From Auanema rhodensis (Eukaryota; Animalia; Nematoda): a DNA stretch of 64,000 bases. The notes under the pieces are model-generated. The model was not told where the DNA came from, did not search any database, and was given only the letters and a program-made list of their open reading frames with translations. The position numbers were made by a program, and so were the translations under genes. The stretch is taken from positions 149,864 to 213,863 of the forward strand of contig CAXKVF010000088.1 of NCBI GenBank assembly GCA_964057225.1. Direction: 5' to 3'. Positions 13,479 to 48,300 of the stretch are shown here, piece by piece. Positions within the stretch are counted from its first letter, which is position 1, and each line of letters begins with the position of its first letter.

Positions 13479-13712
13479 GTCAAGGTTTATTGTTCTTTAT
13501 CACAGGTTATAACAATAGCAGTTTTGAAAAAAGAAAGTGGATAAAAGAAGTTCCTTACAATATGAACATGATTATATAAATTGATTGACATGAAAACATT
13601 AATTGTATAGAGATAAGAATAATTATTGAATCAATTATGTCAGTAGAAAATATATATTCTAAACAAGTAAATCTATGTGTCATAGTTGTCAACCCATCCT
13701 TGATAAACAAGG

Positions 13713-13867
13713 GATTTGTTCAGTTCAAAAAATATGACCTGACCTCATTTTTACTTTTACCAGGTGCGGTGGAACTTAGAGAAAAAGTCGAGCCCGTTCT
13801 GGTAATCAGAGGTAACTATCACCAGATTCGTATGGCTAATGCCTATAGAGTCCATGGTGCAGTAACA
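13713..13867 (-). other. Conserved structured RNA domain in the 3' UTR of element 1
   Basis: Aligns by eye to 38924-39071 with compensatory changes in several stems while the flanking UTR is poorly alignable. Confidence 0.7.
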
Positions 13868-14019
13868 TTGTAGCAAAGGGAACAAGGATGTGGTTGAAAA
13901 CAAAAAATGATACATGAAGAACATAGTTTGCATAGATATTTGTAGAAGACATATTGAAATAATAATTAGAGAACAAAATATCATAAGCAGACGAAAAACA
14001 TTAATAATGAAAGTGCAAG

Positions 14020-17922: not shown

Positions 17923-18118
17923 ATTGAAAAACGAGGGAGTAAAAGAAGGGAAGTAAGAAAGAATAAGAATAAACACTGAAGTGGAAAATAAAAAAGAAAC
18001 AAATACGAGAGAAAGGAAATAATGATAAAACTAAAATGCGATACGAAAGAGAGCGCACCTTGACAAAGCCAGTCCGACGAAAATTTCCTTGACAGAAACG
18101 GATCCGGATCCAAACAGC

Positions 18119-18647
18119 GGAAGTCAACTGACGAGTGGGAGGTCAACTGACGAGTGAGGAGGTCAACTGACGAGTGGGAGGTCAACTGACGAGTGTGGAG
18201 GTCAACTGACGAGTGGGAGGTCAACTGACGAGTGGGGAGGTCAACTGACGAGTGGGAGGTCAACTGACGAGTGAGGAGGTCAACTGACGAGTGGGAGGTC
18301 AACTGACGAGTGAGGAGGTCAACTGACGAGTGAGAGGTCAACTGACGAGTGGGGAGGTCAACTGACGAGTGGGGAGGTCAACTGACGAGTGGGGAGGTCA
18401 ACTGACGAGTGGGGAGGTCAACTGACGAGTGGGAGGTCAACTGACGAGTGGGAGGTCAACTGACGAGTGAGGAGGTCAACTGACGAGTGGGAGGTCAACT
18501 GACGAGTGGGAGGTCAACTGACGAGTGAGGACGTCAACTGACGAGTGAGGAGGTCAACTGACGAGTGAGGAGGTCAACTGACGAGTGAGGAGGTCAACTG
18601 ACGAGTGAGGAGGTCAACTGACGAGTGAGGAGGTCAACTGACGAGTG
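18119..18647. repeat. 27 x 19-20-bp tandem repeat at the 5' end of element 1
   Basis: Invariant core GTCAACTGACGAGTG joined by variable linkers GGAG, AGGAG, GGGAG, TGGAG, AGAG, AGGAC. Confidence 0.97.
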
Positions 18648-18676
18648 TTCACGTAAATTTCAAAATTTTAAATTTC
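18648..18676. other. Junction filler copied from adjacent satellite sequence
   Basis: TTCACGTAAATTTCAAA-ATTT-TAAATTTC repeats pieces of the target at 18686-18702. Confidence 0.85.
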
Positions 18677-24600: not shown

Positions 24601-27600
24601 ATCTTTCACGTGAAGCGAGTTACATACCAAGTGCACATCACGTGTACATTTAATTAGCATAAATTAAAGTTCACGTAAATTTCAAAGTCATGGTTACCAT
24701 GCACCAATATCAATAAAAATTTGTTTTTAGACTAATATGGACATGGGGAATCTAATTTTGAAAACCGCATCTCTTTATCTTTCACGTGAAGCGAGTTACA
24801 TACCAAGTGCACATCACGTGTACATTTAATTAGCATAAATTAAAGTTCACGTAAATTTCAAAGTCATGGTTACCATGAACCAATATCAATAAAAATTTGT
24901 TTTTAGACTAATATGGACATGGGGAATCTAATTTTGAAAACCGCATCTCTTTATCTTTCACGTGAAGCGAGTTACATACCAAGTGCACATCACGTGTACA
25001 TTTAATTAGCATAAATTAAAGTTCACGTAAATTTCAAAGTCATGGTTACCATGCACCAATATCAATAAAAATTTGTTTTTAGACTAATATGGACATGGGG
25101 AATCTAATTTTGAAAACCGCATCTCTTTATCTTTCACGTGAAGCGAGTTACATACCAAGTGCACATCACGTGTACATTTAATTAGCATAAATTAAAGTTC
25201 ACGTAAATTTCAAAGTCATGGTTACCATGCACCAATATCAATAAAAATTTGTTTTTAGACTAATATGGACATGGGGAATCTAATTTTGAAAACCGCATCT
25301 CTTTATCTTTCACGTGAAGCGAGTTACATACCAAGTGCACATCACGTGTACATTTAATTAGCATAAATTAAAGTTCACGTAAATTTCAAAGTCATGGTTA
25401 CCATGAAGCAATATCAATAAAAATTTGTTTTTAGACTAATATGGACATGGGGAATCTAATTTTGAAAACCGCATCTCTTTATCTTTCACGTGAAGCGAGT
25501 TACATACCAAGTGCACATCACGTGTACATTTAATTAGCATAAATTAAAGTTCACGTAAATTTCAAAGTCATGGTTACCATGAACCAATATCAATAAAAAT
25601 TTGTTTTTAGACTAATATGGACATGGGGAATCTAATTTTGAAAACCGCATCTCTTTATCTTTCACGTGAAGCGAGTTACATACCAAGTGCACATCACGTG
25701 TACATTTAATTAGCATAAATTAAAGTTCACGTAAATTTCAAAGTCATGGTTACCATGAAGCAATATCAATAAAAATTTGTTTTTAGACTAATATGGACAT
25801 GGGGAATCTAATTTTGAAAACCGCATCTCTTTATCTTTCACGTGAAGCGAGTTACATACCAAGTGCACATCACGTGTACATTTAATTAGCATAAATTAAA
25901 GTTCACGTAAATTTCAAAGTCATGGTTACCATGAACCAATATCAATAAAAATTTGTTTTTAGACTAATATGGACATGGGGAATCTAATTTTGAAAACCGC
26001 ATCTCTTTATCTTTCACGTGAAGCGAGTTACATACCAAGTGCACATCACGTGTACATTTAATTAGCATAAATTAAAGTTCACGTAAATTTCAAAGTCATG
26101 GTTACCATGCACCAATATCAATAAAAATTTGTTTTTAGACTAATATGGACATGGGGAATCTAATTTTGAAAACCGCATCTCTTTATCTTTCACGTGAAGC
26201 GAGTTACATACCAAGTGCACATCACGTGTACATTTAATTAGCATAAATTAAAGTTCACGTAAATTTCAAAGTCATGGTTACCATGAACCAATATCAATAA
26301 AAATTTGTTTTTAGACTAATATGGACATGGGGAATCTAATTTTGAAAACCGCATCTCTTTATCTTTCACGTGAAGCGAGTTACATACCAAGTGCACATCA
26401 CGTGTACATTTAATCAGCATAAATTAAAGTTCACGTAAATTTCAAAGTCATGGTTACCATGCACCAATATCAATAACAATTTGTTTTTAGACTAATATGG
26501 ACATGGGGAATCTAATTTTGAAAACCGCATCTCTTTATCTTTCACGTGAAGCGAGTTACATACCAAGTGCACATCACGTGTACATTTAATTAGCATAAAT
26601 TAAAGTTCACGTAAATTTCAAAGTCATGGTTACCATGCACCAATATCAATAAAAATTTGTTTTTAGACTAATATGGACATGGGGAATCTAATTTTGAAAA
26701 CCGCATCTCTTTATCTTTCACGTGAAGCGAGTTACATACCAAGTGCACATCACGTGTACATTTAATTAGCATAAATTAAAGTTCACGTAAATTTCAAAGT
26801 CATGGTTACCATGAAGCAATATCAATAAAAATTTGTTTTTAGACTAATATGGACATGGGGAATCTAATTTTGAAAACCGCATCTCTTTATCTTTTACGTG
26901 AAGCGAGTTACATACCAAGTGCACATCACGTGTACATTTAATTAGCATAAATTAAAGTTCACGTAAATTTCAAAGTCATGGTTACCATGCACCAATATCA
27001 ATAAAAATTTGTTTTTAGACTAATATGGACATGGGGAATCTAATTTTGAAAACCGCATCTCTTTATCTTTCACGTGAAGCGAGTTACATACCAAGTGCAC
27101 ATCACGTGTACATTTAATTAGCATAAATTAAAGTTCACGTAAATTTCAAAGTCATGGTTACCATGAACCAATATCAATAAAAATTTGTTTTTAGACTAAT
27201 ATGGACATGGGGAATCTAATTTTGAAAACCGCATCTCTTTATCTTTCACGTGAAGCGAGTTACATACCAAGTGCACATCACGTGTACATTTAATTAGCAT
27301 AAATTAAAGTTCACGTAAATTTCAAAGTCATGGTTACCATGCACCAATATCAATAAAAATTTGTTTTTAGACTAATATGGAAATGGGGAATCTAATTTTG
27401 AAAACCGCATCTCTTTATCTTTCACGTGAAGCGAGTTACATACCAAGTGCACATCACGTGTACATTTAATTAGCATAAATTAAAGTTCACGTAAATTTCA
27501 AAGTCATGGTTACCATGAAGCAATATCAATAAAAATTTGTTTTTAGACTAATATGGACATGGGGAATCTAATTTTGAAAACCGCATCTCTTTATCTTTCA

Positions 27601-30600
27601 CGTGAAGCGAGTTACATACCAAGTGCACATCACGTGTACATTTAATTAGCATAAATTAAAGTTCACGTAAATTTCAAAGTCATGGTTACCATGCACCAAT
27701 ATCAATAAAAATTTGTTTTTAGACTAATATGGACATGGGGAATCTAATTTTGAAAACCGCATCTCTTTATCTTTTACGTGAAGCGAGTTACATACCAAGT
27801 GCACATCACGTGTACATTTAATTAGCATAAATTAAAGTTCACGTAAAATTCAAAGTCATGGTTACCATGCACCAATATCAATAAAAATTTGTTTTTAGAC
27901 TAATATGGACATGGGGAATCTAATTTTGAAAACCGCATCTCTTTATCTTTTACGTGAAGCGAGTTACATACCAAGTGCACATCACGTGTACATTTAATTA
28001 GCATAAATTAAAGTTCACGTAAATTTCAAAGTCATGGTTACCATGCACCAATATCAATAAAAATTTGTTTTTAGACTAATATGGACATGGGGAATCTAAT
28101 TTTGAAAACCGCATCTCTTTATCTTTCACGTGAAGCGAGTTACATACCAAGTGCACATCACGTGTACATTTAATTAGCATAAATTAAAGTTCACGTAAAT
28201 TTCAAAGTCATGGTTACCATGCACCAATATCAATAAAAATTTGTTTTTAGACTAATATGGACATGGGGAATCTAATTTTGAAAACCGCATCTCTTTATCT
28301 TTCACGTGAAGCGAGTTACATACCAACATCACGTGTACATTTAATTAGCATAAATTAAAGTTCACGTAAATTTCAAAGTCGTGGTTACCATGCACCAATA
28401 TCAATAAAAATTCGTTTTTAGACTAATATGGACATGGGGAATCTAATTTTGAAAACCGCATCTCTTTATCTTTCACGTGAAGCGAGTTACATACCAAGTG
28501 CACATCACGTGTACATTTAATTAGCATAAATTAAAGTTCACGTAAATTTCAAAGTCATGGTTACCATGCACCAATATCAATAAAAATTTGTTTTTAGACT
28601 AATATGGACATGGGGAATCTAATTTTGAAAACCGCATCTCTTTATCTTTCACGTGAAGCGAGTTACATACCAAGTGCACATCACGTGTACATTTAATTAG
28701 CATAAATTAAAGTTCACGTAAAATTCAAAGTCATGGTTACCATGAACCAATATCAATAAAAATTTGTTTTTAGACTAATATGGACATGGGGAATCTAATT
28801 TTAAAAACCGCATCTCTTTATCTTTCACGTGAAGCGAGTTACATACCAAGTGCACATCACGTGTACATTTAATTAGCATAAATTAAAGTTCACGTAAATT
28901 TCAAAGTCATGGTTACCATGCACCAATATCAATAAAAATTTGTTTTTAGACTAATATGGACATGGGGAATCTAATTTTGAAAACCGCATCTCTTTATCTT
29001 TCACGTGAAGCGAGTTACATACCAAGTGCACATCACGTGTACATTTAATTAGCATAAATTAAAGTTCACGTAAATTTCAAAGTCATGGTTACCATGCACC
29101 AATATCAATAAAAATTTGTTTTTAGACTAATATGGACATGGGGAATCTAATTTTGAAAACCGCATCTCTTTATCTTTCACGTGAAGCGAGTTACATACCA
29201 AGTGCACATCACGTGTACATTTAATTAGCATAAATTAAAGTTCACGTAAATTTCAAAGTCATGGTTACCATGAAGCAATATCAATAAAAATTTGTTTTTA
29301 GATTAATATGGACATGGGGAATCTAATTTTGAAAACCGCATCTCTTTATCTTTCACGTGAAGCGAGTTACATACCAAGTGCACATCACGTGTACATTTAA
29401 TTAGCATAAATTAAAGTTCACGTAAATTTCAAAGTCATGGTTACCATGAACCAATATCAATAAAAATTTGTTTTTAGACTAATATGGACATGGGGAATCT
29501 AATTTTGAAAACCGCATCTCTTTATCTTTCACGTGAAGCGAGTTACATACCAAGTGCACATCACGTGTACATTTAATTAGCATAAATTAAAGTTCACGTA
29601 AATTTCAAAGTCATGGTTACCATGCACCAATATCAATAAAAATTTGTTTTTAGACTAATATGGACATGGGGAATCTAATTTTGAAAACCGCATCTCTTTA
29701 TCTTTCACGTGAAGCGAGTTACATACCAAGTGCACATCACGTGTACATTTAATTAGCATAAATTAAAGTTCACGTAAAATTCAAAGTCATGGTTACCATG
29801 AACCAATATCAATAAAAATTTGTTTTTAGACTAATATGGACATGGGGAATCTAATTTTAAAAACCGCATCTCTTTATCTTTCACGTGAAGCGAGTTACAT
29901 ACCAAGTGCACATCACGTGTACATTTAATTAGCATAAATTAAAGTTCACGTAAATTTCAAAGTCATGGTTACCATGCACCAATATCAATAAAAATTTGTT
30001 TTTAGACTAATATGGACATGGGGAATCTAATTTTGAAAACCGCATCTCTTTATCTTTCACGTGAAGCGAGTTACATACCAAGTGCACATCACGTGTACAT
30101 TTAATTAGCATAAATTAAAGTTCACGTAAATTTCAAAGTCATGGTTACCATGCACCAATATCAATAAAAATTTGTTTTTAGACTAATATGGACATGGGGA
30201 ATCTAATTTTGAAAACCGCATCTCTTTATCTTTCACGTGAAGCGAGTTACATACCAACATCACGTGTACATTTAATTAGCATAATTTAAAGTTCACGTAA
30301 ATTTCAAAGTCGTGGTTACCATGCACCAATATCAATAAAAATTCGTTTTTAGACTAATATGGACATGGGGAATCTAATTTTGAAAACCGCATCTCTTTAT
30401 CTTTCACGTGAAGCGAGTTACATACCAAGTGCACATCACGTGTACATTTAATTAGCATAAATTAAAGTTCACGTAAATTTCAAAGTCATGGTTACCATGC
30501 ACCAATATCAATAAAAATTTGTTTTTAGACTAATATGGACATGGGGAATCTAATTTTGAAAACCGCATCTCTTTATCTTTCACGTGAAGCGAGTTACATA

Positions 30601-33600
30601 CCAAGTGCACATCACGTGTACATTTAATTAGCATAAATTAAAGTTCACGTAAAATTCAAAGTCATGGTTACCATGAACCAATATCAATAAAAATTTGTTT
30701 TTAGACTAATATGGACATGGGGAATCTAATTTTAAAAACCGCATCTCTTTATCTTTCACGTGAAGCGAGTTACATACCAAGTGCACATCACGTGTACATT
30801 TAATTAGCATAAATTAAAGTTCACGTAAATTTCAAAGTCATGGTTACCATGCACCAATATCAATAAAAATTTGTTTTTAGACTAATATGGACATGGGGAA
30901 TCTAATTTTGAAAACCGCATCTCTTTATCTTTCACGTGAAGCGAGTTACATACCAAGTGCACATCACGTGTACATTTAATTAGCATAAATTAAAGTTCAC
31001 GTAAAATTCAAAGTCATGGTTACCATGAACCAATATCAATAAAAATTTGTTTTTAGACTAATATGGACATGGGGAATCTAATTTTAAAAACCGCATCTCT
31101 TTATCTTTCACGTGAAGCGAGTTACATACCAAGTGCACATCACGTGTACATTTAATTAGCATAAATTAAAGTTCACGTAAATTTCAAAGTCATGGTTACC
31201 ATGCACCAATATCAATAAAAATTTGTTTTTAGACTAATATGGACATGGGGAATCTAATTTTGAAAACCGCATCTCTTTATCTTTCACGTGAAGCGAGTTA
31301 CATACCAAGTGCACATCACGTGTACATTTAATTAGCATAAATTAAAGTTCACGTAAATTTCAAAGTCATGGTTACCATGCACCAATATCAATAAAAATTT
31401 GTTTTTAGACTAATATGGACATGGGGAATCTAATTTTGAAAACCGCATCTCTTTATCTTTCACGTGAAGCGAGTTACATACCAAGTGCACATCACGTGTA
31501 CATTTAATTAGCATAAATTAAAGTTCACGTAAATTTCAAAGTCATGGTTACCATGAAGCAATATCAATAAAAATTTGTTTTTAGATTAATATGGACATGG
31601 GGAATCTAATTTTAAAAACCGCATCTCTTTATCTTTCACGTGAAGCGAGTTACATACCAAGTGCACATCACGTGTACATTTAATTAGCATAAATTAAAGT
31701 TCACGTAAATTTCAAAGTCATGGTTACCATGAACCAATATCAATAAAAATTTGTTTTTAGACTAATATGGACATGGGGAATCTAATTTTGAAAACCGCAT
31801 CTCTTTATCTTTCACGTGAAGCGAGTTACATACCAAGTGCACATCACGTGTACATTTAATTAGCATAAATTAAAGTTCACGTAAATTTCAAAGTCATGGT
31901 TACCATGCACCAATATCAATAAAAATTTGTTTTTAGACTAATATGGACATGGGGAATCTAATTTTGAAAACCGCATCTCTTTATCTTTCACGTGAAGCGA
32001 GTTACATACCAAGTGCACATCACGTGTACATTTAATTAGCATAAATTAAAGTTCACGTAAAATTCAAAGTCATGGTTACCATGAACCAATATCAATAAAA
32101 ATTTGTTTTTAGACTAATATGGACATGGGGAATCTAATTTTAAAAACCGCATCTCTTTATCTTTCACGTGAAGCGAGTTACATACCAAGTGCACATCACG
32201 TGTACATTTAATTAGCATAAATTAAAGTTCACGTAAATTTCAAAGTCATGGTTACCATGCACCAATATCAATAAAAATTTGTTTTTAGACTAATATGGAC
32301 ATGGGGAATCTAATTTTGAAAACCGCATCTCTTTATCTTTCACGTGAAGCGAGTTACATACCAAGTGCACATCACGTGTACATTTAATTAGCATAAATTA
32401 AAGTTCACGTAAATTTCAAAGTCATGGTTACCATGCACCAATATCAATAAAAATTTGTTTTTAGACTAATATGGACATGGGGAATCTAATTTTGAAAACC
32501 GCATCTCTTTATCTTTCACGTGAAGCGAGTTACATACCAAGTGCACATCACGTGTACATTTAATTAGCATAAATTAAAGTTCACGTAAATTTCAAAGTCA
32601 TGGTTACCATGAAGCAATATCAATAAAAATTTGTTTTTAGACTAATATGGAAATGGGGAATCTAATTTTGAAAACCGCATCTCTTTATCTTTCACGTGAA
32701 GCGAGTTACATACCAAGTGCACATCACGTGTACATTTAATTAGCATAAATTAAAGTTCACGTAAATTTCAAAGTCATGGTTACCATGAAGCAATATCAAT
32801 AAAAATTTGTTTTTAGACTAATATGGACATGGAAAATCTAATTTTGAAAACCGCATCTCTTTATCTTTCACGTGAAGCGAGTTACATACCAAGTGCACAT
32901 CACGTGTACATTTAATTAGCATAAATTAAAGTTCACGTAAATTTCAAAGTCATGGTTACCATGAACCAATATCAATAAAAATTTGTTTTTAGACTAATAT
33001 GGACATGGGGAATCTAATTTTGAAAACCGCATCTCTTTATCTTTCACGTGAAGCGAGTTACATACCAAGTGCACATCACGTGTACATTTAATTAGCATAA
33101 ATTAAAGTTCACGTAAATTTCAAAGTCATGGTTACCATGAACCAATATCAATAAAAATTTGTTTTTAGACTAATATGGACATGGGGAATCTAATTTTGAA
33201 AACCGCATCTCTTTATCTTTCACGTGAAGCGAGTTACATACCAAGTGCACATCACGTGTACATTTAATTAGCATAAATTAAAGTTCACGTAAATTTCAAA
33301 GTCATGGTTACCATGCACCAATATCAATAAAAATTTGTTTTTAGACTAATATGGACATGGGGAATCTAATTTTGAAAACCGCATCTCTTTATCTTTCACG
33401 TGAAGCGAGTTACATACCAAGTGCACATCACGTGTACATTTAATTAGCATAAATTAAAGTTCACGTAAAATTCAAAGTCATGGTTACCATGAACCAATAT
33501 CAATAAAAATTTGTTTTTAGACTAATATGGACATGGGGAATCTAATTTTAAAAACCGCATCTCTTTATCTTTCACGTGAAGCGAGTTACATACCAAGTGC

Positions 33601-35369
33601 ACATCACGTGTACATTTAATTAGCATAAATTAAAGTTCACGTAAATTTCAAAGTCATGGTTACCATGCACCAATATCAATAAAAATTTGTTTTTAGACTA
33701 ATATGGACATGGGGAATCTAATTTTGAAAACCGCATCTCTTTATCTTTCACGTGAAGCGAGTTACATACCAAGTGCACATCACGTGTACATTTAATTAGC
33801 ATAAATTAAAGTTCACGTAAATTTCAAAGTCATGGTTACCATGCACCAATATCAATAAAAATTTGTTTTTAGACTAATATGGACATGGGGAATCTAATTT
33901 TGAAAACCGCATCTTTTTATCTTTCACGTGAAGCGAGTTACATACCAAGTGCACATCACGTGTACATTTAATTAGCATAAATTAAAGTTCACGTAAATTT
34001 CAAAGTCATGGTTACCATGAAGCAATATCAATAAAAATTTGTTTTTAGACTAATATGGAAATGGGGAATCTAATTTTGAAAACCGCATCTCTTTATCTTT
34101 CACGTGAAGCGAGTTACATACCAAGTGCACATCACGTGTACATTTAATTAGCATAAATTAAAGTTCACGTAAATTTCAAAGTCATGGTTACCATGAAGCA
34201 ATATCAATAAAAATTTGTTTTTAGACTAATATGGACATGGAAAATCTAATTTTGAAAACCGCATCTCTTTATCTTTCACGTGAAGCGAGTTACATACCAA
34301 GTGCACATCACGTGTACATTTAATTAGCATAAATTAAAGTTCACGTAAATTTCAAAGTCATGGTTACCATGAACCAATATCAATAAAAATTTGTTTTTAG
34401 ACTAATATGGACATGGGGAATCTAATTTTGAAAACCGCATCTCTTTATCTTTCACGTGAAGCGAGTTACATACCAAGTGCACATCACGTGTACATTTAAT
34501 TAGCATAAATTAAAGTTCACGTAAATTTCAAAGTCATGGTTACCATGCACCAATATCAATAAAAATTTGTTTTTAGACTAATATGGACATGGGGAATCTA
34601 ATTTTGAAAACCGCATCTCTTTATCTTTCACGTGAAGCGAGTTACATACCAAGTGCACATCACGTGTACATTTAATTAGCATAAATTAAAGTTCACGTAA
34701 AATTCAAAGTCATGGTTACCATGCACCAATATCAATAAAAATTTGTTTTTAGACTAATATGGACATGGGGAATCTAATTTTGAAAACCGCATCTCTTTAT
34801 CTTTTACGTGAAGCGAGTTACATACCAAGTGCACATCACGTGTACATTTAATTAGCATAAATTAAAGTTCACGTAAATTTCAAAGTCATGGTTACCATGC
34901 ACCAATATCAATAAAAATTTGTTTTTAGACTAATATGGACATGGGGAATCTAATTTTGAAAACCGCATCTCTTTATCTTTCACGTGAAGCGAGTTACATA
35001 CCAAGTGCACATCACGTGTACATTTAATTAGCATAAATTAAAGTTCACGTAAATTTCAAAGTCATGGTTACCATGCACCAATATCAATAAAAATTTGTTT
35101 TTAGACTAATATGGACATGGGGAATCTAATTTTGAAAACCGCATCTCTTTATCTTTCACGTGAAGCGAGTTACATACCAAGTGCACATCACGTGTACATT
35201 TAATTAGCATAAATTAAAGTTCACGTAAATTTCAAAGTCATGGTTACCATGAAGCAATATCAATAAAAATTTGTTTTTAGACTAATATGGAAATGGGGAA
35301 TCTAATTTTGAAAACCGCATCTCTTTATCTTTCACGTGAAGCGGGTTACATACCAAGTGCACATCACGT
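18677..35369. repeat. 176-bp satellite array, block 2 (~95 monomers)
   Basis: Same monomer and orientation; two monomers carry a 5-bp deletion (near 28326 and 30257). Confidence 0.99.
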
Positions 35370-35372
35370 CAC

Positions 35373-35547
35373 GAATTATCTTCCTTTTGAAATTATCTTC
35401 CTTTTGAATTGATCTTCCTTTTGAAATTATCTTCCTTTTGAATTGATCTTCCTTTTGAAATTATCTTCCTTTTGAAATTATCTTCCTTTTGAAATTATCT
35501 TCCTTTTGAAATTATCTTCCTTTTGAAATTATCTTCCTTTTGAAATT
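35373..35547. repeat. 10 x 17-bp tandem repeat GAAATTATCTTCCTTTT at the 5' truncation point
   Basis: Units start at 35373, 35389, 35406 and onward to 35525; two are GAATTGATCTTCCTTTT variants; the unit is ORF1 coding sequence (YLPFEI). Confidence 0.97.
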
Positions 35548-35988
35548 CAACTGGAAAACAACCTTCGCGAGGAAGCAAAAGAAAAAAACAAAAACAACAC
35601 TAAGTCTGTCTTTTTGGTACGAGATCTTCGACTTATTGAAGTTTCCCGCAATCCAGCCGATCCTCCAAACCCTCAAATAGCTCCCACTTCTTCTTGTAAT
35701 CAAACTCCTAAAATACCATCTATTCACAACGTTCCATTACCAACACTCCATTCTCAAACTCTCACATCCCCAACTCTTTTTTCTAGCCCCCCTTGTAAAT
35801 CTGGTAGAATGAGCCGGTCGAAGGAAAGACAGAACCGCACGTCAAAAGACAAGCGTTCTTCTGTTAGCCCAAGACGTCGCAAAAATCCACCACGATCCGC
35901 AAAATTAACCACAGATCAAATTACCAGATCTGTTAGCATGAACAATACATCTCAACGTCTCACGTCTGACAAAATGTCCTTTCGTTAA
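35530..35988 (+). pseudogene. ORF1 C-terminal remnant of element 2
   Basis: YLPFEIQLENNLREEAK...FLVRDLRLIEV...SSPPCKSGR...SPRRRKNPPR...SFR* matches element 1 ORF1. Confidence 0.88.
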
Positions 35989-38809
35989 CACTGTCACGTC
36001 TTCAACCCCCCCTGTCTCACATCCTACCAGCCTCTCAGTTCAGTGTCTTAATGCACGTTCTATTCTTAACAAACTTCATATACTATCCCACGTTATTTCT
36101 TTATCCACTCCTGATATAATTGCAATATCAGAATCATGGCTTTTTCCTGAGTTCGATACCCACCTACTCCCATGTAAACATACTTACACTATTTTTAGAG
36201 CCGATAGGTGTCTCTCACGTGGTGGTGGTGTTGTCCTCTATATTAAAAGTCATATCAAACCTTTTCTTCTTTCCTGTTCTTCTCCTCAATCTTCTATACA
36301 ATTCATTAACTTACTCATACCTTCACTTAATGCTGTTTTCTCACTTTGTTATCGTCCTCCAACAGCTTCTCATTCAGATTTCATTTCGTTTCTTTCTGAT
36401 CTACGTAAACAAATTTCCAAACGATCGTTCTTCCTAACGGGCGATCTTAATTTTCCTAAAATCAACTGGGACCTCGGTATTTGCTCTCAACCATGCTCCT
36501 CTAGTAGATCTATTCTTCAATTTCTTAACGATAGCTGTTCTCATCAGTTGGTAAAGTTCCCTACCAGAGGCAAGAACATTCTTGATTATGTTATCACTGA
36601 TAACATATCCAGTGTAGGCAACATATCCCGTTCTTCCCCCCTCGGCTCCTCGGATCACCATTCTGTGGTTTTCCAAATTGTTTCAGACTCTTTTCAGTTA
36701 GCTAATACAATCAGCTCTTCTAATACTTTGTCTCCGGTAGCATTACCTATGTTTTCTGATCGCAATTTTCAAGTTGCTGACTACAATCTCATCAATCATA
36801 GACTAGCCAAAATTGATTTCGCTAATCATCTCTCCGGTCTCACTCCTTTAGATTCTTACTCTAAACTTGTTCACATTCTTCACTCGGTCATTGATAGCTG
36901 CGTTCCCAAAAAACAAGAAAGAAGAAAAAAGAAGATTGACCGAGATATTTTAAAACTCTCATCTCATATAAAAAAACTCAGTTGTTCTTATCATCATCAT
37001 GATGAATCTCGTCGTAAAAAACTTTCACATTCTCTTGATAAACTTATCAAGAATAGATTGGCTTTGGAAGAGGAACGTATTGCCAACTATAATAATTCAA
37101 AACTTCTTTACCGCTTTTGCAGAACCCGTTTGGGTGGCAGCACTTCAGATATCCCAAATCTCAAAATAGATAATGATTCTGTTTCGTCTGATTCTGACAA
37201 AGCTTCTATCTTTGCTACTACCTTCTCTGTTCGCCCCCTTCCTATCTCTCTACCACATGCTCCTCATTCCTTTTCTTCTACTATTATCGACTTTATTGAT
37301 GTCTCCCCTCTCAACGTTCACAAAATTCTCTGTCAGTTACCTCTTCGGGTATCAACATCCCCAGACGGAATCCCTTATTTCTTCCTAAAAAATTGTGCTT
37401 CTACTCTCTCTCAGCCTCTGGCCTTTGTTTTCCACAATCTACTTGTTTCCTCCTCTTGCCCTCCTGACTGGAAAACAGCTTGGATTCGTCCCGTTCATAA
37501 ATCAGGACTTTCTTCTAACCCGGCTAATTATCGTCCTATTTCTCTCACATCCAGTCTATCTAAAGTTTTTGAACGTCTCCTTCGTTCACCTCTTCTTGAC
37601 TTTGGTATTTCCTCCGGCTTTATTTCTCCTAATCAGTTTGCTTTTCTTCCAAAACGCAATACTGTATCAGCAATTCTTAGTAGTCATGTTCTCTGGAGAT
37701 CTGCTGTAGACAAGAAAAAACCTGTTTATGTTGCCTTTATTGACTTTTCTAAGGCTTTTGATCTCATAAATCATTCCGTTCTGTTAGCTAAATTAAAATC
37801 AATTGGCATTGCCGGCTGTATTCTCACTTTTCTCAAAAACTTCATTACTAATAGATCTTTCTCTGTATTAGTTAATTACTCTCTATCCGTCACAAATTCT
37901 TTGCCCTGTGGAGTTCCACAGGGGACAGTACTGGGTCCTCTTCTTTTTTTATTTTATATAAATGATATTACATCAAATTTACCTGATGATGTACATCCAA
38001 CTCTTTATGCAGACGATCTTAAACTAAGCAGCACAAATCCGGTAAGTTTACAACTAGCTTTGAATATTCTCAAAAACTGGTGTCTATCTAACGGTATGAA
38101 AGTTAATACTTCCAAATCCAAAGTTATGATTATATCGAGTACCACTACACCAAGAACAAACACAATTTTCAAATTTGGAGACATTTCTTTAGCTACAGTA
38201 TCATCATATAAAGATCTAGGTGTGTGTACAGACTATAATCTCTCTTTTAACAGTCATATAGACAGAATTTCTAACATTGCTGCTCACAAATGTCGTGTTA
38301 TTTTGCGTTGTTTTTACTCAAGATCACCAACTTTGATGTTCAAACTTTTTTGCTGCTATATCCGACCAATTTTAGAATATGCTTCAGTTGTATGGTCTCC
38401 TCAGAATAACAAAGATAAAGCGCGCATTGAGTCTGTCCAAAAAAAGTTTTTAAACGCTATTTTTAAGAGAGCCGAAATAGCTTTGGATTACAAGAACCAG
38501 CTATTGTTTCTTGGAGCCGAGGAGCTAACGTTTAGAAGACTACTAATTGATCTCGTTTTTTATCATAATCAGATTACTAAAAATGTTCCAGAAAACAACC
38601 TTAACTTTTTTACTACCAAGCACTATGCTCATTCACTACGTAGACATCTATGGAATGTTGAATACCCTGATCTTTGGAAGAGCGAAACAAGAACTGGAAT
38701 AGAATACAGAGCTATTCAAATCTGGAACACACTCCCTGAAAACATCGTTCAACTAAGAAACACTTCCAGCTTCAGAAAACATCTTTCTATTAATCTTAAC
38801 AATATTTAA
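35942..38809 (+). CDS. ORF2: apurinic-like endonuclease + reverse transcriptase, intact; no initiator ATG
   Basis: Manual translation shows the frame open from 35942 (after TGA) through CLNARSILNKLH, ISESWL, YRPP, GDLNFP into the 753-aa track ORF (YADD); first in-frame ATG is at 36749. Confidence 0.95.
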   Translation, partial: TIHLNVSRLTKCPFVNTVTSSTPPVSHPTSLSVQCLNARSILNKLHILSHVISLSTPDIIAISESWLFPEFDTHLLPCKHTYTIFRADRCLSRGGGVVLYIKSHIKPFLLSCSSPQSSIQFINLLIPSLNAVFSLCYRPPTASHSDFISFLSDLRKQISKRSFFLTGDLNFPKINWDLGICSQPCSSSRSILQFLNDSCSHQLVKFPTRGKNILDYVITDNISSVGNISRSSPLGSSDHHSVVFQIVSDSFQLANTISSSNTLSPVALPMFSDRNFQVADYNLINHRLAKIDFANHLSGLTPLDSYSKLVHILHSVIDSCVPKKQERRKKKIDRDILKLSSHIKKLSCSYHHHDESRRKKLSHSLDKLIKNRLALEEERIANYNNSKLLYRFCRTRLGGSTSDIPNLKIDNDSVSSDSDKASIFATTFSVRPLPISLPHAPHSFSSTIIDFIDVSPLNVHKILCQLPLRVSTSPDGIPYFFLKNCASTLSQPLAFVFHNLLVSSSCPPDWKTAWIRPVHKSGLSSNPANYRPISLTSSLSKVFERLLRSPLLDFGISSGFISPNQFAFLPKRNTVSAILSSHVLWRSAVDKKKPVYVAFIDFSKAFDLINHSVLLAKLKSIGIAGCILTFLKNFITNRSFSVLVNYSLSVTNSLPCGVPQGTVLGPLLFLFYINDITSNLPDDVHPTLYADDLKLSSTNPVSLQLALNILKNWCLSNGMKVNTSKSKVMIISSTTTPRTNTIFKFGDISLATVSSYKDLGVCTDYNLSFNSHIDRISNIAAHKCRVILRCFYSRSPTLMFKLFCCYIRPILEYASVVWSPQNNKDKARIESVQKKFLNAIFKRAEIALDYKNQLLFLGAEELTFRRLLIDLVFYHNQITKNVPENNLNFFTTKHYAHSLRRHLWNVEYPDLWKSETRTGIEYRAIQIWNTLPENIVQLRNTSSFRKHLSINLNNI
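35977..35988 (+). promoter_or_regulatory. Putative +1 ribosomal frameshift site TCC_TTT_CGT_TAA
   Basis: Last ORF1 codons plus stop; ORF2 is in the +1 frame and lacks an upstream ATG. Confidence 0.78.
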
Positions 38810-38923
38810 CCTTTCTCTGTTATTGTAACTTGAAATCTTGTTTATGTATATTCTTCTATTTACAAGCATTTAAGCCTCAAGCTATGTTAAAGTTAGACAG
38901 TTCCCTAGTTTACCTCTGAGACC

Positions 38924-39071
38924 TGTTACTACGTATTTTATCCTATAGACATTAGTCATACGGATAGAACGATAGTTACCTCTTGCTGTCAGAACGGGCT
39001 TGACTCACATCAAGAGTTCCACCGTACCTGTCAGAATACTATAGAGGTCAGTGATCTACACTGAACAAATC
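38924..39071 (+). other. Conserved structured RNA domain in the 3' UTR of element 2
   Basis: Covarying stems relative to 13713-13867 (minus strand). Confidence 0.7.
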
Positions 39072-39303
39072 AACTCTTCTTTATCAAACTAGAACTGTTT
39101 CGAAACCTTAACAAACAAGTAGTGCTGCTCGCTATCATTGTAAAAGAAAATATGCTGAACCTGTTTCTTGTACATATATTTTTTTAGTCAATTATTACAA
39201 GTATGTTTGTATTGTAAGGTTCTTTTGAATATCTGCAATTTTCCCGATTTATTAACCTTGTTTTCCGATTATAACCTGTGATTCGAACAATAAACCCGTT
39301 CAA

Positions 39304-42300
39304 ACGTGTACATTTAATTAGCATAAATTAAAGTTCACGTAAATTTCAAAGTCATGGTTACCATGAACCAATATCAATAAAAATTTGTTTTTAGACTAAT
39401 ATGGACATGGGGAATCTAATTTTGAAAACCGCATCTCTTTATCTTTCACGTGAAGCGAGTTACATACCAAGTGCACATCACGTGTACATTTAATTAGCAT
39501 AAATTAAAGTTCACGTAAAATTCAAAGTCATGGTTACCATGCACCAATATCAATAAAAATTTGTTTTTAGACTAATATGGACATTGGGAATCTAATTTTG
39601 AAAACCGCATCTCTTTATCTTTTACGTGAAGCGAGTTACATACCAAGTGCACATCACGTGTACATTTAATTAGCATAAATTAAAGTTCACGTAAATTTCA
39701 AAGTCATGGTTACCATGCACCAATATCATTAAAAATTTGTTTTTAGACTAATATGGACATGGGGAATCTAATTTTGAAAACCGCATCTCTTTATCTTTCA
39801 CGTGAAGCGAGTTACATACCAAGTGCACATCACGTGTACATTTAATTAGCATAAATTAAAGTTCACGTAAATTTCAAAGTCATGGTTACCATGAACCAAT
39901 ATCAATAAAAATTTGTTTTTAGACTAATATGGACATGGGGAATCTAATTTTGAAAACCGCATCTCTTTATCTTTCACGTGAAGCGAGTTACATACCAAGT
40001 GCACATCACGTGTACATTTAATTAGCATAAATTAAAGTTCACGTAAATTTCAAAGTCGTGGTTACCATGCACCAATATCAATAAAAATTCGTTTTTAGAC
40101 TAATATGGACATGGGGAATCTAATTTTGAAAACCGCATCTCTTTATCTTTCACGTGAAGCGAGTTACATACCAAGTGCACATCACGTGTACATTTAATTA
40201 GCATAAATTAAAGTTCACGTAAATTTCAAAGTCATGGTTACCATGAACCAATATCAATTAAAATTTGTTTTTAGACTAATATGGACATGGGGAATCTAAT
40301 TTTGAAAACCGTATCTCTTTATCTTTCACGTGAAGCGAGTTACATACCAAGTGCACATCACGTGTACATTTAATTAGCATAAATTAAAGTTCACGTAAAT
40401 TTCAAAGTCATGGTTACCATGAACCAATATCAATAAAAATTTGTTTTTAGACTAATATGGACATGGGCAATCTAATTTTGAAAACCGCATCTCTTTATCT
40501 TTCACGTGAAGCGAGTTACATACCAAGTGCACATCACGTGTACATTTAATTAGCATAAATTAAAGTTCACGTAAATTTCAAAGTCATGGTTACCATGCAC
40601 CAATATCAATAAAAATTTGTTTTTAGACTAATATGGACATAGGGAATCTAATTTTGAAAACCGCATCTCTTCATCTTTCACGTGAAGCGAGTTACATACC
40701 AAGTGCACATCACGTCTAAATTTAATTAGCATAAATTAAAGTTCACGAAAATTTCAAAGTCATGGTTACCATGAACCAATATCAATAAAAATTTGTTTTT
40801 AGACTAATATGGACATGGGCAATCTAATTTTGAAAACCGCATCTCTTTATCTTTCACGTGAAGCGAGTTACATACCAAGTGCACATCACGTGTACATTTA
40901 ATTAGCATAAATTAAAGTTCACGTAAATTTCAAAGTCATGGTTACCATGCACCAATATCAATAAAAATTTGTTTTTAGACTAATATGGACATGGGGAATC
41001 TAATTTTGAAAACCGCATCTCTTCATCTTTCACGTGAAGCGAGTTACATACCAAGTGCACATCACGTGTACATTTAATTAGCATAAATTAAAGTTCACGT
41101 AAATTTCAAAGTCATGGTTACCATGAACCAATATCAATAAAAATTTGTTTTTAGACTAATATGGACATGGGGAATCTCATTTTAAAAACCGCATCTCTTT
41201 ATCTTTCACGTGAAGCGAGTTACATACCAAGTGCACATCACGTGTACATTTAATTAGCATAAATTAAAGTTCACGTAAATTTCAAAGTCATGGTTACCAT
41301 GCACCAATATCAATAAAAATTTGTTTTTAGACTAATATGGACATGGGGAATCTAATTTTGAAAACCGCATCTCTTTATCTTTCACGTGAAGCGAGTTACA
41401 TACCAAGTGCACCTCACGTGTACATTTAATTAGCATAAATCAAAGTTCACGTAAATTTCAAAGTCATGGTTACCATGCACCAATATCAATAAAAATTTGT
41501 TTTTAGACTAATATGGACATGGGGAATCTAATTTTGAAAACCGCATCTCTTTATCTTTCACGTGAAGCGAGTTACATACCAAGTGCACATCACGTGTACA
41601 TTTAATTAGCATAAATTAAAGTTCACGTAAATTTCAAAGTCATGGTTACCATGCACCAATATCAATAAAAATTTGTTTTTAGACTAATATGGACATGGGG
41701 AATCTAATTTTGAAAACCGCATCTCTTCATCTTTCACGTGAAGCGAGTTACATACCAAGTGCACATCAAGTGTACATTTAATTAGCATAAATTAAAGTTC
41801 ACGTAAATTTCAAAGTCATGGTTACCATGCACCAATATCAATAAAAATTTGTTTTTAGACTAATATGGACATGGGGAATCTAATTTTGAAAACCGCATCT
41901 CTTTATCTTTCACGTGAAGCGAGTTACATACCAAGTGCACATCACGTGTACATTTAATTAGCATAAATTAAAGTTCACGTAAATTTCAAAGTCATGGTTA
42001 CCATGAACCAATATCAATAAAAATTTGTTTTTAGACTAATATGGAAATGGGGAATCTAATTTTGAAAACCGCATCTCTTTATCTTTCACGTGAAGCGAGT
42101 TACATACCAAGTGCACATCACGTGTACATTTAATTAGCATAAATTTAAGTTCACGTAAATTTCAAAGTCATGGTTACCATGAACCAATATCAATAAAAAT
42201 TTGTTTTTAGACTAATATGGACATGGGGAATCTAATTTTGAAAACCGCATCTCTTTATCTTTCACGTGAAGCGAGTTACATACCAAGTGCACATCACGTG

Positions 42301-45300
42301 TACATTTAATTAGCATAAATTAAAGTTCACGTAAATTTCAAAGTCATGGTTACCATGCACCAATATCAATAAAAATTTGTTTTTAGACTAATATGGACAT
42401 GGGGAATCTAATTTTGAAAACCGCATCTCTTTATCTTTCACGTGAAGCGAGTTACATACCAAGTGCACATCAAGTGTACATTTAATTAGCATAAATTAAA
42501 GTTCACGTAAATTTCAAAGTCATGGTTACCATGCACCAATATCAATAAAAATTTGTTTTTAGACTAATATGGACATGGGGAATCTAATTTTGAAAACCGC
42601 ATCTCTTTATCTTTCACGTGAAGCGAGTTACATACCAAGTGCACATCACGTGTACATTTAATTAGCATAAATTAAAGTTCACGTAAATTTCAAAGTCATG
42701 GTTACCATGAACCAATATCAATAAAAATTTGTTTTTAGACTAATATGGACATGGGGAATCTAATTTTGAAAACCGCATCTCTTCATCTTTCACGTGAAGC
42801 GAGTTACATACCAAGTGCACATCACGTGTACATTTAATTAACATAAATTAAAGTTCACGTAAATTTCAAAGTCATGGTTACCATGCACCAATATCAATAA
42901 AAATTTGTTTTTAGACTAATATGGACATGGGGAATCTCATTTTAAAAACCGCATCTCTTTATCTTTCACGTGAAGCGAGTTACATACCAAGTGCACATCA
43001 CGTGTACATTTAATTAGCATAAATTAAAGTTCACGTAAATTTCAAAGTCATGGTTACCATGCACCAATATCAATAAAAATTTGTTTTTAGACTAATATGG
43101 ACATGGGGAATCTAATGTTGAAAACCGCATCTCTTCATCTTTCACGTGAAGCGAGTTACATACCAAGTGCACATCACGTGTACATTTAATTAGCATAAAT
43201 TAAAGTTCACGTAAATTTCAAAGTCATGGTTACCATGAAGCAATATCAATAAAAATTTGTTTTTAGACTAATATGGAAATGGGGAATCTAATTTTGAAAA
43301 CCGCATCTCTTTATCTTTCACGTGAAGCGAGTTACATACCAAGTGCACATCACGTGTACATTTAATTAGCATAAATTAAAGTTCACGTAAATTTCAAAGT
43401 CATGGTTACCATGAACCAATATCAATAAAAATTTGTTTTTAGACTAATATGGACATGGGGAATCTCATTTTAAAAACCGCATCTCTTTATCTTTCACGTG
43501 AAGCGAGTTACATACCAAGTGCACATCACGTGTACATTTAATTAGCATAAATTAAAGTTCACGTAAATTTCAAAGTCATGGTTACCATGCACCAATATCA
43601 ATAAAAATTTGTTTTTAGACTAATATGGACATGGGGAATCTAATTTTGAAAACCGCATCTCTTTATCTTTCACGTGAAGCGAGTTACATACCAAGTGCAC
43701 CTCACGTGTACATTTAATTAGCATAAATCAAAGTTCACGTAAATTTCAAAGTCATGGTTACCATGCACCAATATCAATAAAAATTTGTTTTTAGACTAAT
43801 ATGGACATGGGGAATCTAATTTTGAAAACCGCATCTCTTTATCTTTCACGTGAAGCGAGTTACATACCAAGTGCACATCACGTGTACATTTAATTAGCAT
43901 AAATTAAAGTTCACGTAAATTTCAAAGTCATGGTTACCATGAACCAATATCAATAAAAATTTGTTTTTAGACAAATATGGACATGGGGAATCTAATTTTG
44001 AAAACCGCATCTCTTTATCTTTCACGTGAAGCGAGTTACATACCAAGTGCACATCACGTGTACATTTAATTAGCATAAATTAAAGTTCACGTAAATTTCA
44101 AAGTCATGGTTACCATGCACCAATATCAATAAAAATTTGTTTTTAGACTAATATGGACATGGGGAATCTAATTTTGAAAACCGCATCTCTTTATCTTTCA
44201 CGTGAAGCGAGTTACATACCAAGTGCACATCACGTGTACATTTAATTAGCATAAATTAAAGTTCACGTAAATTTCAAAGTCATGGTTACCATGCACCAAT
44301 ATCAATAAAAATTTGTTTTTAGACTAATATGGACATGGGGAATCTAATTTTGAAAACCGCATCTCTTCATCTTTCACGTGAAGCGAGTTACATACCAAGT
44401 GCACATCAAGTGTACATTTAATTAGCATAAATTAAAGTTCACGTAAATTTCAAAGTCATGGTTACCATGCACCAATATCAATAAAAATTTGTTTTTAGAC
44501 TAATATGGACATGGGGAATCTAATTTTGAAAACCGCATCTCTTTATCTTTCACGTGAAGCGAGTTACATACCAAGTGCACATCACGTGTACATTTAATTA
44601 GCATAAATTAAAGTTCACGTAAATTTCAAAGTCATGGTTACCATGAAGCAATATCAATAAAAATTTGTTTTTAGACTAATATGGAAATGGGGAATCTAAT
44701 TTTGAAAACCGCATCTCTTTATCTTTCACGTGAAGCGAGTTACATACCAAGTGCACATCACGTGTACATTTAATTAGCATAAATTTAAGTTCACGTAAAT
44801 TTCAAAGTCATGGTTACCATGAACCAATATCAATAAAAATTTGTTTTTAGACTAATATGGACATGGGGAATCTAATTTTGAAAACCGCATCTCTTTATCT
44901 TTCACGTGAAGCGAGTTACATACCAAGTGCACATCACGTGTACATTTAATTAGCATAAATTAAAGTTCACGTAAATTTCAAAGTCATGGTTACCATGCAC
45001 CAATATCAATAAAAATTTGTTTTTAGACTAATATGGACATGGGGAATCTAATTTTGAAAACCGCATCTCTTTATCTTTCACGTGAAGCGAGTTACATACC
45101 AAGTGCACATCAAGTGTACATTTAATTAGCATAAATTAAAGTTCACGTAAATTTCAAAGTCATGGTTACCATGCACCAATATCAATAAAAATTTGTTTTT
45201 AGACTAATATGGACATGGGGAATCTAATTTTGAAAACCGCATCTCTTTATCTTTCACGTGAAGCGAGTTACATACCAAGTGCACATCACGTGTACATTTA

Positions 45301-48300
45301 ATTAGCATAAATTAAAGTTCACGTAAATTTCAAAGTCATGGTTACCATGAACCAATATCAATAAAAATTTGTTTTTAGACTAATATGGACATGGGGAATC
45401 TAATTTTGAAAACCGCATCTCTTCATCTTTCACGTGAAGCGAGTTACATACCAAGTGCACATCACGTGTACATTTAATTAACATAAATTAAAGTTCACGT
45501 AAATTTCAAAGTCATGGTTACCATGCACCAATATCAATAAACATTTGTTTTTAGACTAATAAGGACATGGGGAATCTAATTTTGAAAACCGCATCTCTTT
45601 ATCTTTCACGTGAAGCGAGTTACATACCAAGTGCACATCACGTGTACATTTAATTAGCATAAATTAAAGTTCACGTAAATTTCAAAGTCATGGTTACCAT
45701 GCACCAATATCAATAAAAATTTGTTTTTAGACTAATATGGACATGGGGAATCTAATGTTGAAAACCGCATCTCTTCATCTTTCACGTGAAGCGAGTTACA
45801 TACCAAGTGCACATCACGTGTACATTTAATTAGCATAAATTAAAGTTCACGTAAATTTCAAAGTCATGGTTACCATGAAGCAATATCAATAAAAATTTGT
45901 TTTTAGACTAATATGGAAATGGGGAATCTAATTTTGAAAACCGCATCTCTTTATCTTTCACGTGAAGCGAGTTACATACCAAGTGCACATCACGTGTACA
46001 TTTAATTAGCATAAATTAAAGTTCACGTAAATTTTAAAGTCGTGGTTACCATGCACCAATATCAATAAAAATTCGTTTTTAGACTAATATGGACATGGGG
46101 AATCTAATTTTGAAAACCGCATCTCTTTATCTTTCACGTGAAGCGAGTTACATACCAAGTGCACATCACGTGTACATTTAATTAGCATAAATTAAAGTTC
46201 ACGTAAATTTCAAAGTCATGGTTACCATGCACCAATATCAATAAAAATTTGTTTTTAGACTAATATGGACATGGGGAATCTAATTTTGAAAACCGCATCT
46301 CTTTATCTTTCACGTGAAGCGAGTTACATACCAAGTGCACATCACGTGTACATTTAATTAGCATAAATTAAAGTTCACGTAAATTTCAAAGTCGTGGTTA
46401 CCATGCACCAATATCAATAAAAATTCGTTTTTAGACTAATATGGACATGGGGAATCTAATTTTGAAAACCGCATCTCTTCATCTTTCACGTGAAGCGAGT
46501 TACATACCAAGTGCACATCACGTGTACATTTAATTAGCATAAATTAAAGTTCACGTAAATTTCAAAGTCATGGTTACCATGAAGCAATATCAATAAAAAT
46601 TTGTTTTTAGACTAATATGGAAATGGGGAATCTAATTTTGAAAACCGCATCTCTTTATCTTTCACGTGAAGCGAGTTACATACCAAGTGCACATCACGTG
46701 TACATTTAATTAGCATAAATTAAAGTTCACGTAAATTTCAAAGTCATGGTTACCATGAACCAATATCAATTAAAATTTGTTTTTAGACTAATATGGACAT
46801 GGGCAATCTAATTTTGAAAACCGCATCTCTTTATCTTTCACGTGAAGCGAGTTACATACCAAGTGCACATCACGTGTACATTTAATTTGCATAAATTAAA
46901 GTTCACGTAAATTTCAAAGTCACGGTTACCATGCACCAATATCAATAAAAATTTGTTTTTAGACTAATATGGACATGGGGAATCTAATTTTGAAAACCGT
47001 ATCTCTTTATCTTTCACGTGAAGCGAGTTACATACCAAGTGCACATCACGTGTACATTTAATTAGCATAAATTAAAGTTCACGTAAATTTCAAAGTCGTG
47101 GTTACCATGAACCAATATCAATAACAATTTGTTTTTAGACTAATATGGACATGGGCAATCTAATTTTGAAAACCGCATCTCTTTATCTTTCACGTGAAGC
47201 GAGTTACATACCAAGTGCACATCACGTGTACATTTAATTAGCATAAATTAAAGTTCACGTAAATTTCAAAGTCATGGTTACCATGAAGCAATATCAATAA
47301 AAATTTGTTTTTAGACTAATATGGACATGAGGAATCTAATTTTGAAAACCGCATCTCTTTATCTTTCACGTGAAGCGAGTTACATACCGAGTGCACATCA
47401 CGTGTACATTTAATTAGCATAAATTAAAGTTCACGTAAATTTCAAAGTCATGGTTACCATGCACCAATATCAATAAAAATTTGTTTTTAGACTAATATGA
47501 AAATGGGGAATCTAATTTTGAAAACCGCATCTCTTTATCTTTCACGTGAAGCGAGTTACATACCAAGTGCACATCACGTGTACATTTAATTAGCATAAAT
47601 TAAAGTTCACGTAAATTTCAAAGTCGTGGTTACCATGCACCAATATCAATAAAAATTCGTTTTTAGACTAATATGGACATGGGGAATCTAATTTTGAAAA
47701 CCGCATCTCTTTTTCTTTCACGTGAAGCGAGTTACATACCAAGTGCACATCACGTGTACATTTAATTAGCATAAATTAAAGTTCACGTAAATTTCAAAGT
47801 CATGGTTACCATGCACCAATATCAATAAAAATTTGTTTTTAGACTAATATGGACATGGGGAATCTAATTTTGAAAACCGCATCTCTTTATCTTTCACGTG
47901 AAGCGAGTTACATACCAAGTGCACATCACGTGTACATTTAATTAGCATAAATTAAAGTTCACGTAAATTTCAAAGTCATGGTTACCATGAACCAATATCA
48001 ATTAAAATTTGTTTTTAGACTAATATGGACATGGACAATCTAATTTTGAAAACCGCATCTCTGTATCTTTCACGTGAAGCGAGTTACATACCAAGTGCAC
48101 ATCACGTGTACATTTAATTAGCATAAATTAAAGTTCACGTAAATTTCAAAGTCACGGTTACCATGCACCAATATCAATAAAAATTTGTTTTTAGACTAAT
48201 ATGGACATGGGGAATCTAATTTTGAAAACCGTATCTCTTTATCTTTCACGTGAAGCGAGTTACATACCAAGTGCACATCACGTGTACATTTAATTAGCAT

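Follow-up and report, generated by a model that had tools for sequence, protein, structure and literature searches.

How the second open reading frame (ORF2) of a LINE is translated has been described in a review as an open question (PMC3894237). The window analysed here, i.e., the whole stretch of 64,000 nt from the nematode Auanema rhodensis, contains two LINEs that raise this question anew: in both, ORF2 overlaps the end of ORF1 in the +1 frame. The first-pass annotation of this DNA had proposed that a nine-base motif at the end of ORF1, UCC_UUU_CGU, lets some ribosomes slip into ORF2. On comparative sequence evidence, we hold it probable (roughly 85%) that a +1 slip at this motif gives a minor fusion of ORF1, endonuclease and reverse transcriptase; the proposal survived every comparative test that we ran and was strengthened by the relatives of the two elements. 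Directly observed are the motif, its frame, its position and its recurrence across LINEs at 23–50% endonuclease identity, without a conserved ORF2 start.

If this reading is right, a third route to ORF2, the frameshifted ORF1–ORF2 fusion, becomes testable through a nine-base signal of defined sequence. It would predict a different enzyme, with the reverse transcriptase tied to the ORF1 coat protein, and would explain ORF2s devoid of a start codon, which bears on annotation and on the building of active elements. The UUU_C signal has so far been described in two vertebrate genes and a handful of viruses; the dozens of diverged sites would further supply natural variants of the E-site and A-site codons that flank it.

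Two LINEs in a Satellite Array

The window (1..64000) is a 176-bp satellite array of about 362 units, interrupted by the insertion of the two LINEs. Element 1 occupies 13479-18647 (minus strand); element 2, which is 5'-truncated inside ORF1, occupies 35374-39303 (plus strand). Their ORF2s, 62% identical to each other, encode an AP endonuclease followed by a reverse transcriptase, with matches to Pfam PF14529/PF03372 and PF00078 above or near the cut-off; ORF1 lies upstream, there are no LTRs, and 5' truncation occurs, all as expected of AP-endonuclease LINEs, while the domain search of the elements showed no protease domain. We take them to be probably CR1-like, a label suggested by the absence of an RNase H match, by C-terminal motifs, by a PHD in the ORF1 of relatives and by trees without named CR1 references.

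Element 2 begins with about ten tandem copies of a 17-bp piece of ORF1 (35374..35547), followed by the 3' part of ORF1 (153 codons, 35527..35988), the ORF2 frame (955 codons, 35942..38809; +1 relative to ORF1) and the 3' UTR (38810..39303), the satellite restarting at 39304. Element 1 is headed by 27 copies of a 20-bp unit (18119..18647), then shows an ORF1 of about 355 codons with its ATG at 17922 (16853..17922), an ORF2 frame of 962 codons, again +1 to ORF1 (14020..16908), and a 3' UTR (13479..14019) that has conserved blocks in common with that of element 2. ORF1 of element 1 changes frame once, near 17548. Both of its halves align in order to unbroken full-length Auanema ORF1 proteins, and the break reads as a mutation or an assembly error; a second programmed shift was rejected, as no slippery heptamer was seen and the Auanema homologues are unbroken. 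Since ORF1 is broken in element 1 and truncated in element 2, neither assembled copy encodes the whole fusion.

Several observations concern the insertions themselves. The array at the head of element 2 (17 bp x 10) was copied from the truncated ORF1 end, which suggests repeated re-priming by the reverse transcriptase during integration; that of element 1 is 20 bp x 27. Within the satellite unit, the two insertion points (35369/39304 and 13478/18676) are separated by about 23 nt; the elements face opposite ways, with candidate target duplications of 4 nt and 6 nt and short filler DNA. In both 3' UTRs (38955-39060 and 13735-13840), the conserved blocks, over about 130 nt, are more similar than their flanks, and both regions fold at about -24 kcal/mol (a value without shuffle control); no Rfam family matches them, and they are possibly a recognition element for the reverse transcriptase. 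Public contigs of three runs contain the joins 35809>36427, 36475>37424 and 37495>38983, without GT-AG ends, probably from a short, non-autonomous offshoot of the family that no longer contains the junction. Finally, ORF1 of element 1 starts with M-S-F-V (17922-17911, minus strand), the same residues as in the predicted shift product of element 2, probably by chance.

The ORF1 End in the Two Elements and a Third Subfamily

In element 2, the predicted shift site and the ORF1 stop occupy 35977..35988 (TCC 35977-79, TTT 35980-82, CGT 35983-85, TAA 35986-88); in element 1, they occupy 16853..16864 on the minus strand (TCC TTT CGT 16864-16856, TGA 16855-16853). The first-pass annotation was thus exact as to both ORF1 ends. 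Its account of the surroundings is likewise borne out: the ORF2 frame opens at 35942 in element 2 and at 16908 in element 1, giving overlaps of 47 and 56 nt; the ORF2 frame of element 2 has no ATG until 36749 (Met at residue 270), beyond the Pfam endonuclease match; and the ORF1 residues preceding the site are not conserved, being identical in 5/27 columns. The junctions have an identical island of 11 nt in common. The word TCCTTTCGT occurs exactly twice in the window, both times at the junctions, against 0.27 occurrences expected, and two occurrences were reached in 3/100 shuffles.

Given that both elements encode S-F-R, the probability that all three codons are identical is about 0.075 (from the same-codon rates in ORF2), so that the two copies alone do not show selection at this level. 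A third subfamily, found in public contigs, differs from element 2 at 81 positions over 555 nt (85% identity). None of its 12 listed differences (of 19, the other 7 being near the ends of the stretch) falls within 35963-35990; an insertion of 3 nt, which keeps the frame, lies after the site and ahead of the endonuclease, and none of the listed differences creates an ORF2-frame ATG (as judged by eye). Taken alone, the two elements and the third subfamily would make a weak case, and it is the relatives, not the window pair, that appear to carry it.

Junctions of Distant Relatives

Metagenome contigs were scanned (13/64 parts covered) for CCTTTCG located 26–86 nt ahead of the first endonuclease motifs. 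The frame, the first base, the third base of CGN and the position of the stop were left free; since the core letters were forced, the scan bears on position and phase and not on synonymous constraint. Among the 117 loci obtained, 11 encode an endonuclease and 106 are chance matches. The endonuclease is +1 to NCC_UUU_CGN in 10/11 true loci, with UCC (4) or CCC (6) as first triplet and all four CGN codons represented. The exception, L069, lies within an ORF and has frame 0. The ORF1 stop is at most 3 codons away in nine true loci. Jointly, the +1 frame, a pyrimidine as first base and a stop within 3 codons characterize 9/11 true loci vs. 8/138 chance loci, the latter being the non-endonuclease loci of the metagenome and viral pattern scans (Fisher p 1.5e-8). 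After removal of three near copies of L033 (L027, L030 and L116), the proportion is 6/8 (p 6e-6). The true loci are 23–36% identical to the window endonucleases over 100 residues and mostly 37–54% identical among themselves. In viral contigs, 0/32 pattern matches were endonuclease loci, and two further scans for related loci found no LINE.

A scan blind to the motif, using an endonuclease-only pattern in prokaryote genome assemblies, gave 29 loci (L150–L178), 27 of which match the LINE ORF2 profile and which are apparently eukaryotic contamination. Of these, L172 alone groups with the motif loci (97/94, in a tree that left out short loci). Its +1 overlap contains UUC_UUU_CGU at five codons from the start, with the ORF1 stop 41 codons further on (chance about 0.02), and no ATG is present ahead of the endonuclease. 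The other 28 have no UUU_CG in +1 arrangement within 300 nt, and the signal is thus lineage-limited rather than general to LINEs.

Altogether, 13 DNA junctions (both elements and 11 relatives) have UUU_C in the zero frame, with the +1 frame open after it. The E-site codon of the relatives is UCC, CCC or UUC, and the exact UCC_UUU_CGU is found in both window elements. For UUU itself, the DNA evidence in which no letters were forced comes from four junctions: the two elements, the third subfamily and L172.

Other arrangements were observed among the motif-blind loci. In L153, L163 and L169, the upstream frame (open over 87, 361 and 244 codons) is in frame with ORF2 across a single UGA, followed by CUA, CUC and CUA, respectively, and located 10–26 codons ahead of endonuclease motif I. 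UGA followed by CU is a readthrough-like context, and these junctions look like stop-codon readthrough, another route to an ORF1–ORF2 fusion. A -1 overlap of ORF2 with ORF1 is seen in L157 (about 170 nt ahead of the endonuclease) and in L155, with candidate -1 slippery sites near its start: G_GGU_UUU in L157 and U_UUU_UUG in L155.

Start Codons at the Junction

The rival that survives best, though we regard it as unlikely, is that ribosomes terminate near the ORF1 stop and reinitiate there to make a separate ORF2p, using an AUG if one is present and a non-AUG codon if not, the pyrimidine-rich motif helping to hold the ribosome. Reinitiation is the tested LINE route, established for SART1 and mammalian L1, where it yields a separate ORF2p (PMC5972666; PMC3894237). 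Moreover, the ORF1 stop is mostly near the motif, and element 1 has an ORF2-frame ATG at 16848, 4 nt past the stop. This ATG aligns with a Val codon of element 2. The first-pass annotation had named a conserved ORF2 ATG in other copies as evidence against the frameshift, and the 13 junctions speak the other way: from the start of the overlap to endonuclease motif I, an ORF2-frame ATG is absent in 8/13 and present at unconserved positions in 5/13 (at +4 codons in element 1, elsewhere in L040, L058, L086 and L116). Over the same interval, L075 has no ATG, CTG, GTG, TTG or ACG, i.e., none of five common start codons, and no conserved AUG of the SART1/L1 type is found at or soon after the ORF1 stop in the 13 junctions. 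The TURBS core UGGGA was seen within 90 nt of the stop in 1/13 junctions, so that TURBS-type reinitiation finds no footing either. Reinitiation further leaves unexplained why the motif keeps to the codon phase of ORF1, and why it does so 41 codons from the stop in L172.

The Residue after the Last Phenylalanine

The frameshift reading can also be confronted with proteins. A profile of eight ORF1s matched 57 proteins, of which 50 were kept, the other 7 having no core end or no tail. A Phe occurs in the last 16 residues in 39/50 tails, against 28% expected from tail composition; the 11 tails without it include frameshifted copies and the most distant matches. The residue after this late Phe is R in 20 proteins, L in 7, Q in 5, H in 3, P in 3 and D in one (P0069). 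Codons beginning with C specify precisely R, L, Q, H and P, and this CNN-coded set follows 38/39 late Phe vs. 106/330 Phe at other places in these proteins. Among the 38, P0076 is spurious, being a frameshifted copy with its Phe inside the endonuclease. The enrichment holds after clustering at 80% (28/29, p 3e-13) and at 60% (9/10, p 2.6e-4). In these 39 proteins, the follower is never K and never a residue with an obligate U-initial codon. It does not simply mirror the search profile either: the seeds had F-R tails and L, Q, H and P are in no seed tail, yet 18/19 non-R followers are these four, and only P0030 has a tail 7-mer in common with a seed. The residue ahead of the Phe is mostly S (18) or P (13), then N (3), L (2), T, K and G. 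Protein sequences do not tell UUU from UUC for Phe; the follower set, being that of the CNN-coded residues, would be the trace of UUU_C and not of a peptide motif. Decay of CGN at CpG was rejected by reasoning as a source of the followers, for it would give Cys or Trp as often as His or Gln.

These tails bear most directly on the view that the motif is kept for the sake of a peptide, be it S/P-F-R at the C-terminus of ORF1p or P-F opening ORF2p, and resembles PA-X by chance. The codon identity of the window pair, at p about 0.075, leaves room for it, and all five full-tailed proteins of the window's lineage end in F-R; in that lineage alone, where the follower is always Arg, a peptide motif may be at work. 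In the relatives, however, the followers are five chemically unlike residues that have only their C-initial codons in common; Lys, which a peptide motif would admit, is not among them, and the distance to the ORF1 end varies from 1 to 9 residues, and much more in L172. A free P-F in the ORF2 frame would often be written with UUU (TTT makes up 73/114 ORF2 Phe codons) and so give U-initial followers, none of which is seen, and an N, L or T ahead of the Phe breaks the ORF2-frame Pro. We therefore consider a peptide reason very unlikely.

As to the window's own lineage, a word-based search with its ORF1 gave no match, and HMMER recovered four proteins: three from Auanema sp. JU1783 (32–36% identity), which end in S-F-R-K, S-F-R and T-F-R-K after unalignable tails, and one from Gnathostoma spinigerum (P0090, 28%), without an F-R end. 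Atlas searches returned generic endonuclease and unnamed ORF1-like clusters only. The window family groups with the large motif clade at 83/77 in one tree and with an SH-aLRT of 85 in the other, and a comparison of their ORF1 profiles, at first without a match, gave a probability of 52% (E 1.4e-4) when made deeper. This tie is weak, so that the motif may have been inherited or reached twice. Most relatives form one clade, and a few hosts may be their source.

Taking DNA and proteins together, the predicted site is (YC)C_UUU_CNN, with UUU_C as its core; its E-site codon appears to be mostly UCC or CCC and its A-site codon mostly CGN, with CUN, CAN and CCN added from the proteins. Two marks of a PA-X-type site can be recognized here, as far as alignments tell: conservation beyond what the peptide needs, seen in the CNN-only followers, and a preference for CGN in the A site and UCC in the E site, with Arg after the Phe in 20/39 tails and the other CNN residues in 18. 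The check on junctions called for by the first-pass annotation is favourable for position, phase and CNN followers in the relatives, rather than for the codons of the window pair by itself.

RNA Structure and Other Signals

Scans around the junctions spoke against a 3' stimulatory structure, pairing with the 3' end, a TURBS, a conserved splice donor and an Rfam element. Local 3' folds have z scores of -1.0 to +0.8 in the 13 junctions; for base pairing between the downstream side and the 3' end of the element, z ranges from -0.5 to +1.1 in five elements, and one of ten pairing tests (upstream side, L027) reached -2.05; at the gathering level, no Rfam family was found, with one chance-level match; and no splice donor is conserved at the junctions, the GT after the motif being absent in L075, L058, L086 and others. 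A role at the RNA level, i.e., a splice or trans-splice site, a protein-binding site or a pairing site, for an ORF2 mRNA or for replication, is the least likely rival of all: the motif is pyrimidine-rich and trans-splicing exists in nematodes, but the motif contains no AG, the scans just given found neither fold, pairing, Rfam family nor constant GT, an ORF2-only mRNA of element 2 would still have no AUG, and codon phase would be irrelevant.

A Model for ORF2 Expression

By analogy with PA-X and PLEKHM2, the tRNA-Phe in the P site would let go of UUU and re-pair with UUC before the CNN codon in the A site is decoded; what is kept in the relatives, a Phe codon and the C after it, is what such re-pairing needs. 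The efficiency would, by the same analogy, be around 1%. Most ribosomes would end ORF1 a few codons on, giving a gag-pol-like ratio of ORF1p to ORF2p, and the rare fusion of about 1,300 residues (355 + 945 in element 1) would keep the coiled coil of ORF1 and could enter the ORF1p coat of its own RNA. The first-pass annotation had also suggested that the adjacent stop codon stimulates the shift. As a required part, the stop can be discarded, being 2 to 41 codons from UUU across the 13 DNA junctions; with UUU in the P site, the stop has yet to enter the A site, and in L172 it lies a long way off, so that any contribution to the shift could only be indirect.

A wider generalization, to which we give even odds, is that a broad branch of invertebrate CR1-like LINEs, from nematodes to unrelated hosts, expresses ORF2 only as an ORF1 fusion and has switched between recoding signals: UUU_CNN +1 shifts here, UGA_CU readthrough in the close relatives L153, L163 and L169, and -1 shifts in others. 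On this view, the PA-X-type signal would have its largest natural reservoir in LINEs, and the gag-pol-like fusion would be a normal LINE strategy.

Comparison with Known Systems

A literature search (titles and abstracts, with incomplete coverage) gave no report of UCC_UUU_CG or UUU_CGN in LINEs, in agreement with the first-pass annotation, which was aware of no such description. Recoding as such has been proposed for several AP-endonuclease LINEs as a way to reach ORF2, as it is here: a -1 frameshift in Dictyostelium TRE5-A/TRE3-A (PMC5911963), a +1 shift or reinitiation in Paramecium non-LTR groups 1–2 and readthrough in group 3 (PMC5405496), and a frameshift in the gag of HeT-A (PMC5009743). 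These elements belong to other clades, and the accessible text of the reports names no shift motif for them and gives no UUU_C site; likewise, in its accessible portions, a large review of frameshifting mentions, among non-LTR elements, only HeT-A and TART (PMC5009743). Virus-like recoding of the 2A type is also known in LINEs (PMC3894237). SART1 (UAAUG coupling) and L1 (reinitiation) resemble the present elements in their bicistronic RNA and low ORF2 output, but translate ORF2p on its own, starting at an AUG located at the stop or beyond it (PMC5972666); element 2 and most relatives have no such AUG. Ty1 and Ty3 also produce their enzymes as a +1 fusion to a structural ORF; they differ as LTR elements, with CUU_AGG_C-type sites, much higher efficiency and processing by a protease (PMC5911963, PMC5052127).

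Beyond retroelements, the predicted vertebrate ASXL1 site is reportedly also of the UUU_C type. Vertebrate PLEKHM2, with UCC_UUU_CGG, shifts at about 1.3%, so that the motif works at about 1% on a nuclear-encoded animal mRNA (PMC11451614); in PLEKHM2 and ASXL1, unlike here, cellular genes are concerned and the shift swaps a C-terminal domain. The amalgaviruses are close to the LINE layout, with a coiled-coil ORF1, a polymerase and a proposed low-level +1 shift at UUU_CGN using all four CGN codons, but they are dsRNA viruses with overlaps of 287–968 nt, while those of the LINEs are mostly short (PMC5052127). The closest parallel for the site is influenza A PA-X, whose UCC_UUU_CGU is identical in both window elements and acts by a P-site slip on UUU_C at 0.7–1.3% (PMC3498833). 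Motifs of this type need no 3' structure, as described for PA-X and PLEKHM2 (PMC3498833, PMC11451614), which is consistent with none being found at the LINE junctions. Compared with PA-X, the present case would concern a retrotransposon, in which an RNA-binding ORF1 is joined to an endonuclease and a reverse transcriptase, the ORF1 stop is mostly a few codons away, and the relatives also use CCC and, as judged from proteins, non-Arg CNN codons.
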